Origin: a virus
Lineage: Duplodnaviria > Caudoviricetes
Strand: one strand, 5' to 3'
IMG/VR virus record: IMGVR_UViG_3300020045_011116
Coordinates: 1-38,558 of that record
DNA: 38,558 bases
The position numbers and the translations under genes were made by a program. The stretch's first letter is position 1; each line of letters starts with the position of its first letter. Shown here piece after piece: positions 386-788 of this stretch. Under the pieces are notes generated by a model. The model made no database searches. It was not told the origin of the DNA and was given only the letters and a program-made list of their open reading frames with translations.

Positions 386-504
386 TATAACGGTTTGCAG
401 ATTGGCGTTGTTGCCTCACAAATGTTTAATTGAAACACTAAACTTGATAATATGGAAAATGATAATTTGAAAACGGAAAGCAATAACGCCAATGTGCTGT
501 TATG
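386..504. repeat. attC-like imperfect inverted repeat 2
   Basis: Left arm TATAAC-GGTTT-GCAG-ATTGGCGTT-G-TTGC (386-414) pairs with GCAA-T-AACGCCAAT-G-TGC-T-GTTATG (480-504); same architecture as repeat 1. Confidence 0.85.
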
Positions 505-736
505 TGCAGTGCCATTGCCTTGCCCATTTTGCGGAGCGGAGGCTAATAAGGATAAGGTTTGGATGGATGCAGTATTTTATATTCAATGCTCGAATACTGA
601 TTGCGTGGCACAACCTTCAATTAGCGTAAAAGCTAAGTGCGTAGAGAATAAAGGTGATACGATTACATACAGCCCATTATGGGAAGATGCAGAAGCGGAG
701 GCAATAGCTAAATGGAACACGAGGCATTGCACATAA
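452..736 (+). CDS. Lar-like (restriction alleviation) zinc-ribbon protein, cassette cargo
   Basis: LPCPFCG...IQCSNTDC...AIAKWNTR matches the Lar family pattern. Confidence 0.7.
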   Translation: MENDNLKTESNNANVLLCAVPLPCPFCGAEANKDKVWMDAVFYIQCSNTDCVAQPSISVKAKCVENKGDTITYSPLWEDAEAEAIAKWNTRHCT

Positions 737-788
737 CATTGTATATGTATTACATCACATTTAACTAATTGATTTAAAATTAATTATT
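723..788. other. Candidate attI-like primary recombination site
   Basis: Terminal core CATAAC (732-737) is followed not by a hairpin arm but by short palindromes (ATGTA-T-TACAT 744-754; TAATTGATTT/AAATTAATTA) just before the recombinase ATG. Confidence 0.5.

Follow-up and report, generated by a model that had tools for sequence, protein, structure and literature searches.

Integrons, and especially the sedentary chromosomal ones with sites of about 120 nt, share with the locus described here an array of cassettes, each with one gene, and a tyrosine recombinase that adjoins a terminal site, together with folded sites that have AAC/GTT cores, complementary cassette ends, one strand that folds better than the other and, by analogy, what may be the same cycle of excision and reinsertion at the terminal site. 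In classical cassettes stop codons are often found in the inverse core, the gene stands upstream of its own attC site and the recombined strand is non-coding. The bottom strand of attC has been described as the better-folding one, cut at the A-C step of AAC (PMC5027507, PMC7439510), with extrahelical bases carried by the arm that does not hold the cleaved AAC (PMC5027507). Membership of the integrons is held to need an integrase with an IntI-specific insertion in its catalytic domain (PMC8138268).

Phage-borne attC clusters were handled by Qi et al. (2023, PMC9892861) as ordinary attC sites without an integrase. One of these, P12002L_attC1 of a Polaribacter phage, which was not recombined by IntI1, has the same architecture as the sites described below, a loop of the short hairpin family and a methyltransferase cargo; the part of that paper drawn on here does not mention a cognate recombinase, an inverted polarity or starts inside the site. 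Sites that provide translation signals are also described, as ORF-11 and ORF-17 of attI1, as short attC ORFs and as fused cassettes (PMC8876359), but the cases given there are coupled ORFs of short length or chance fusions, located in the platform or arising once a site has been lost, whereas here the leader lies in the mobile unit. Folded sites read as protein have been engineered as synthetic peptide-encoding attC and put forward as a means of shuffling modules (Nivina et al. 2020, PMC7439510); those sites are driven by IntI1, and the present system would be their natural counterpart. A literature search covering few subscription journals found no paper on this system or on starts inside such sites.

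Here we describe the end of a cassette array in a phage genome. We consider it probable that the hairpin at 388-501 and the gene behind it form one TAAC-to-TAAC unit, likely moved at the AAC of the left arm by the adjacent recombinase family, with the hairpin loop likely giving the start codon.

The array end and its recombinase

The window, which is the whole virus record of 38,558 bases, contains terminase, packaging and helicase genes, and its phage likely belongs to Bacteroidota hosts, because four of the six closest recombinase relatives in genome collections sit on contigs titled Bacteroidota. The array end occupies bases 1-1616 and reads, all on the plus strand, hairpin 1, a 53-codon ORF, hairpin 2, a 94-codon ORF, the terminal site and a tyrosine recombinase. 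The record opens within a further cassette (1-113), the 3' end of which is covered by many contigs in 4/4 sequencing runs, and the array extends past the window. Cassette 1 (117-390) comprises hairpin 1 (114-203; TAAC 114-117 to GTT 201-203; fold z -3.83, 1/200 shuffles as good), the site of the upstream cassette, and the 53-codon ORF (219-380), which has its own start 3' of the right arm. Its ends, 201-209 and 383-391, are complementary at 9/9 positions, and one contig with nine differences spans 113-398. Candidate hairpins at 255-360 (fold z -0.17) and at the terminal site (fold z 0.67) were rejected, and bases 1-1800 gave no match to Rfam.

The cassette at 391-736 is the last of this integron-like array. 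It begins with hairpin 2 (388-501), in which the left core TAAC (388-391) is followed by a 4-nt bulge, a stem, a loop at about 415-479 and a right arm that ends in GTT (499-501). Folded as DNA, the top strand of 382-510 gives -16.9 kcal/mol (z -2.75; 2/200 shuffles as good), and since about 415-479 is unpaired in the centroid fold, ATG 452 is predicted to lie in the loop. The ORF that opens there (452-736; MENDNLKTES-NNANVLL-CAV-PLPCPFCG...RHCT) encodes a Lar-like zinc-ribbon protein of 94 aa, the first 17 codons of which (452-502) form a site-encoded leader with ten codons from the loop and seven, codons 11-17 (482-502), from the right arm. Residues 22-91 match the Pfam family Lar_restr_allev (E 1.6e-6; score 28.7, cutoff 28.6), and TIGR03655 gives 27.6 with a cutoff of 39.6. 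The stop codon TAA (734-736) lies inside CATAAC (732-737) and in the next core, TAAC 734-737. The 3' end of the cargo is followed by an attI-like terminal site, whose conservation begins at TAAC 734 and extends to roughly 756 (both within 726-756). The 5' end of the cargo (499-510) is complementary to 726-737 in 11/12 pairs, and this pairing would complete the stem in an excised circle. Within the right-arm family of hairpin 2, an in-frame loop ATG is found in 38/38 distinct copies; 36 stay open for at least 50 codons further, one ends with its contig and one stops at the arm, and 18/38 terminate in the next TAAC. A comparison of hairpin 2 with GenBank phages gave no DNA match.

The recombinase (789-1616, 275 aa) is related to IntI. 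Judged from its sequence, the catalytic residues of the tyrosine recombinase family appear intact, R131, K156, H220, R223, H246 and Y255 being invariant in 26/26 aligned proteins. Its best PDB match is Vibrio IntI4 (2A3V), but it differs from integron integrases in that the IntI insertion is absent, the region holding 21 residues as compared with about 64 in IntI4, and in that it scores 176 against TIGR02249, below the cutoff of 265. The XerC and XerD equivalog scores (159 against 330 and 145 against 335 bits) are also below cutoff. The system works like an integron, yet it is not one by membership.

While a locus search with the single recombinase sequence returned nothing, an alignment-based search gave 21 viral and six genome loci. 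The terminal core was found upstream of 23/26 recombinases (at least 53% identity), 52-57 nt ahead of the gene, and the terminal site is kept from TAAC onward and variable before it. As in integrons, it is a non-hairpin site that adjoins the recombinase; no hairpin follows the recombinase in 32/32 loci. Complementarity was at least 6/7 in nine of the 15 loci with both a terminal core and an upstream hairpin and 3-5 in three, the other three (the window, L077 and L085) being cases where the script had picked the wrong AAC. Many arrays have no recombinase nearby, which speaks against our reading. A second type of array end, without a recombinase and with a short inverted repeat directly after the core, occurs in L086 (3236-3258), and in many arrays the base after the terminal TAAC is T or A in place of G. 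One recombinase with a cassette of this type lies on a 2.3-kb contig (L144) titled as a non-Bacteroidota bin, which is probably mis-binned.

Extent and movement of the unit

A protein search turned up two further contigs with the Lar-like cargo, L086 and L130. Identity between L086 and the window spans from TAAC 388 to TAAC 737, and L130 has a different hairpin downstream of the cargo. All three DNA copies stand behind one hairpin family, and each is followed by something different downstream, namely the recombinase site, a further terminal sequence or a foreign hairpin. Against this reading, the loop part of the leader varies among the three copies although the cargo is 95-99% identical.

A scan of 400 loci gave 937 hairpin calls, where 11 are expected from shuffles, and 737 cargo units with 38 multi-member clusters. 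Many of the loci came from hairpin patterns, so the counts are biased in a way that affects cargos on both hairpin sides: 17 clusters retain the upstream hairpin only, with the downstream side changed, 13 change both hairpins and one is mixed (these last two classes being against our reading), four represent the same array, two are unscorable and none genuinely retains the downstream hairpin only. The single cluster called 'downstream only' was dropped because locus L279 had been called twice, and the 'both differ' pairs of L045 were based on a mis-called 5' end. The Lar-like cargo and the Baltic arrays described below were found by protein rather than by hairpin pattern. At the downstream edge, identity drops, a single base past AAC, from 1.0 to 0.39 (18 clusters); at the upstream edge it is 0.2-0.6 over the five positions that precede TAAC and, for the most part, 0.87-1.0 beyond it (15 clusters).

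Arrays of about 9-16 cassettes are carried by cultured Flavobacterium phages from the Baltic (L400, L401, L403-L410 and L412: stinky, filifjonk, hemulen, lillamy, sniff, snork, snusmum, mumin, hattifnatt and morran), and ten of the 11 could be followed as far as a single terminal site. Gains, losses and moves among these 11 arrays mostly concern hairpin-plus-cargo blocks. The near-identical phages lillamy9-1 and 9-7 differ by a 439-bp hairpin-plus-cargo block that has moved, TAAC to TAAC, from mid-array to the terminal site, with the donor junction restored and flanks that are 100% identical. The moved cassette was received at a terminal site comparable to that of the window, in a group where filifjonk9-1, the one whole genome searched, gave no recombinase match, so a host enzyme likely acts in trans. 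One case goes the other way, since the Baltic cargo C14 kept its downstream hairpin H5 while the upstream one changed. The Baltic arrays also share a common start flank and include several annotated methyltransferase cargos. Methyltransferase differences were noted, and one methyltransferase was linked to plating efficiency, by those who described the phages (Nilsson et al. 2020, PMC7077304), in a main text with no occurrence of 'integron' or 'cassette'; cultured phages with arrays and methyltransferase cargo mean that a testable system exists.

Complementarity of the two cargo ends was seen in 104/146 consecutive pairs, compared with 6/146 for the hairpin's own flanks and a mean of seven after shuffling. 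This is the pattern that a circular intermediate would leave, and which hairpin travels is not identified by the pattern alone. The stem is lengthened in circle form at 572/580 sites, and the fold is more stable on the gene-sense strand at 551/580, an asymmetry that bears indirectly on the single-strand recombination with replicative resolution expected of integrons. We propose that the gene-sense strand folds and is the strand recombined, like the bottom strand of attC, that excision would give a circle in which the complementary cargo ends complete the stem, and that the circle would be reinserted at the terminal site beside the recombinase. The TAA of the core doubles as the stop codon. No excision or circle joint for cassette 391-736 was found in the contigs of eight sequencing runs, in which the cargo is almost uncovered.

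Genes lie on the better-folding strand in 565/587 cases, and therefore the site here precedes the gene. They are inverted relative to classical cassettes, which places the site at the 5' end, where it is able to carry a start, and as they point towards the terminal site, a Pc promoter located there, which in integrons sits at attI and expresses the first cassette, could not drive them. The aadA7 oligonucleotide in the supplement of Qi et al., which we take to be the bottom strand, has ends (TAACG...TGTTA) that match the gene-sense strand here. Bacterial arrays with the same type of site, beside recombinases of 32-38% identity, have classical polarity in 6/7 intervals, a small sample, and it is probably the inversion relative to host cassettes that lets the site carry the start. 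Unlike in attC, and against our reading, the extra unpaired bases are on the AAC arm at 566/578 sites in predicted folds, the bulge being of several bases. Segments in both orientations, as in shufflon or invertase systems, were not found; arrays are co-oriented, with a single opposite-strand call in 6/108 loci.

Crossover at the AAC of the left arm is well supported by sequence comparison as the usual route, because the cargo copies, the clusters, the lillamy move, the terminal site and strand folding agree. With regard to the preliminary description, which placed the gene between the loop of hairpin 2 and CATAAC, the coordinates, frame and fold all check, and its unit of hairpin plus gene recurs as the same cargo from TAAC to TAAC in other contigs, in the cluster counts and in the block moved in lillamy. 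Its coordinates of 392-737 and the 391-736 given here, which takes the exact AA|C cut from integrons, denote one 346-bp unit with boundaries within the two TAAC cores, the cut position inside TAAC being beyond the reach of sequence comparison. If polarity were instead that of classical integrons, crossover would fall at the G|TT of the right arm, the cassette would be cargo plus downstream hairpin and the leader would be borrowed from the previous cassette; seen on the top strand, the sites do resemble R'' ... R', R'' holding the stop, and the side of the bulge and Baltic C14 with H5 fit as well, but the Lar-like cargo has no downstream hairpin in two of its three contexts and a foreign one in the third, and with 0/38 clusters genuinely keeping that hairpin alone we find this extremely improbable. 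Mosaics could also arise with no site-specific system at all, if hairpins that resemble each other undergo homologous or illegitimate recombination; the mosaic loops and arms and the many arrays without a recombinase might be cited for this. Base-exact cut-and-paste at a 4-5-nt core with a restored donor junction, a conserved terminal site 52-57 nt before the recombinase and stem extension in nearly every circle form make that very unlikely.

Probable translation from within the site

The loop of the hairpin likely supplies the start codon, and the site would be read as the first 17 residues. For cargos open from GTT behind hairpins of at least 100 nt, a hairpin ATG was found in frame in 217/260, as compared with 111/520 in the other frames (Fisher p ~1e-64, the sequences being not fully independent). 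Bacteroidota starts are reported to have A at -3 and at -11 to -13 (PMC6847099). In-frame loop ATGs have A at -3 in 58% and at -12 in 86%, other hairpin ATGs in 20% and 38%, and ordinary cargo starts in 67% and 69%. The distance from ATG to GTT is 47 nt in 35/37 copies of the hairpin 2 family and that from AAC to ATG is variable, with length changes that precede the ATG and none after it. The context of ATG 452 itself is good though short of ideal: position -3 is A, but -6 is G and only two of the four bases from -14 to -11 are A, which is against our reading.

It might be argued that the cassette moves as described while the protein starts after the hairpin, at GTG 509 or TTG 515, the loop ATG being incidental or a translational enhancer. 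The Lar match begins at residue 22, a distant relative begins a few codons ahead of its CPFC motif, and leaders are interchangeable and therefore probably dispensable for function; moreover, in 85/223 read-through cargos an ATG of their own follows GTT in frame by no more than 15 codons, so that some loop starts may go unused. Against this, the start context is poor at 509, 515 and 563 (509 and 515 have no A at -3 and 9-10 G+C in the 20 upstream bases, as compared with five for ATG 452), a start at the next ATG (563) would drop the first CxxC, all 13 clearly hairpin-led homologues hold the frame through the arm, and 69/223 read-through cargos lack an ATG throughout their first half, which leaves a start after the hairpin very unlikely. 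Hairpin and cargo might, alternatively, be equally independent modules, with both cores used at similar rates and pairing only transient. The change on both sides in 13/38 clusters, the junction at TTGTT by which mumin6-3 joins hairpin H5 to cargo C23 (which follows H23 in five other arrays) and the range of leaders on the Lar-like cargo could be explained in this way. Those leaders come from 17 database proteins, which are gene-caller products without DNA context: six have the NNANV leader, seven have other hairpin-type leaders in the same frame, of which six are on near-identical cargo (70-72/73 core residues identical) and the seventh on a more distant copy (56/73), and the remaining four are truncated, fused or unlike. 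Since the Baltic changes mostly involve hairpin-plus-cargo blocks and the upstream hairpin is kept in 12 of 13 informative pairs at 95% identity or above and changed in one, we regard full independence as unlikely.

In 59 of the 96 long hairpins ahead of own-start cargos, a loop ORF runs across the right arm, in most cases ending a short way beyond it; translational coupling is one possible explanation, and relics of out-of-frame swaps another. Hairpins of 185-294 nt, with loops that encode 46-71 residues, occur in L005, L063, L086 (~2140-2350), L118, L122, L124 and L145, and in some of them the loop-encoded part is longer than the cargo part. In P0132, a Lar-like cargo is joined via a degenerate leader to a 120-residue upstream domain.

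Leader exchange

An in-frame leader lies within the mobile unit in 223/552 cassettes, in two main frames (120 and 90) and a third (13). NNANVLL is one tag among many, there being 164 distinct right arms in the 223, and its family heads 23 cargo types. One protein per type was compared with Pfam, giving GIY-YIG, N6/N4 methylase and Lar, one sub-cutoff match and 19 blanks. A tag search supports the earlier expectation of a shared N-terminal peptide on unrelated cargo, and the excess in frame, the start context and the fixed spacing from ATG to GTT lend statistical support to a start supplied by the site. The preliminary description further held that the gene stays intact only if crossover occurs at the left arm; the left arm is indeed the rule, but 'only' is too strict, given six other in-frame leaders on near-identical Lar cargo. 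Crossover at the right-arm GTT, which it took to be incompatible with its reading, does occur, since cargos switch hairpins at TGTT, but it is rarer and the gene survives.

The contigs L019 and L091, for example, have a 95% identical cargo behind unrelated hairpins, with the junction at TGTT and the frame retained. At 80-95% identity the upstream hairpin is kept in 12 and changed in 19 of 31 pairs, and because change is common there and rare at or above 95%, hairpin swapping appears to be the slower event. Less often than whole-unit movement, then, a cargo would change hairpin at the right-arm GTT, and in-frame swaps would create a new leader-cargo fusion. Recombination of the other strand, for which the cut would be at G|TT, occurs at low frequency for some attC sites (PMC5027507), and we give this route slightly better than an even chance of being the means of the change, with homology-driven conversion falling just short of even. 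Mosaics of loop and arm show that other exchange happens too, and double strand exchange between folded sites is disfavoured because the 5-6 bases that precede GTT, judged by eye, are not carried along with the cargo. The start-bearing loop (417-477 in the window; H14 and H22 in the Baltic arrays) occurs between different arm pairs, the hairpins being mosaics of loop and stem.

We tentatively suggest, with less than even confidence, a natural protein-shuffling platform, in which one strand of the folded site moves cassettes and the other swaps in-frame leaders that bring a start signal and 10-50 residues. If so, the recombinase itself would build new cassettes and expression levels, which bears on how cassettes get their sites. 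Integron-style gene shuffling would extend to Bacteroidota phages, in cassettes that are inverted and with a recombinase expected to score below the cutoff of integrase detectors. The recombination site would be doubly constrained, as folded DNA and as coding sequence, which in the papers compared had been shown only by engineering. It would also explain the recurrent N-terminal tags on unrelated small phage proteins, tags that can mislead homology searches. Hairpin exchange together with paired change of the cassette ends may offer a handle on cassette genesis. Related cargos that are 80-91% identical (L030 compared with L047 and L185, L002 with L090, L032 with L164 and L155 with L316) have had both of their terminal 7-9-base ends replaced complementarily, and the hairpin with them, as though packed afresh into another site, and this may bear on how cassettes originate.
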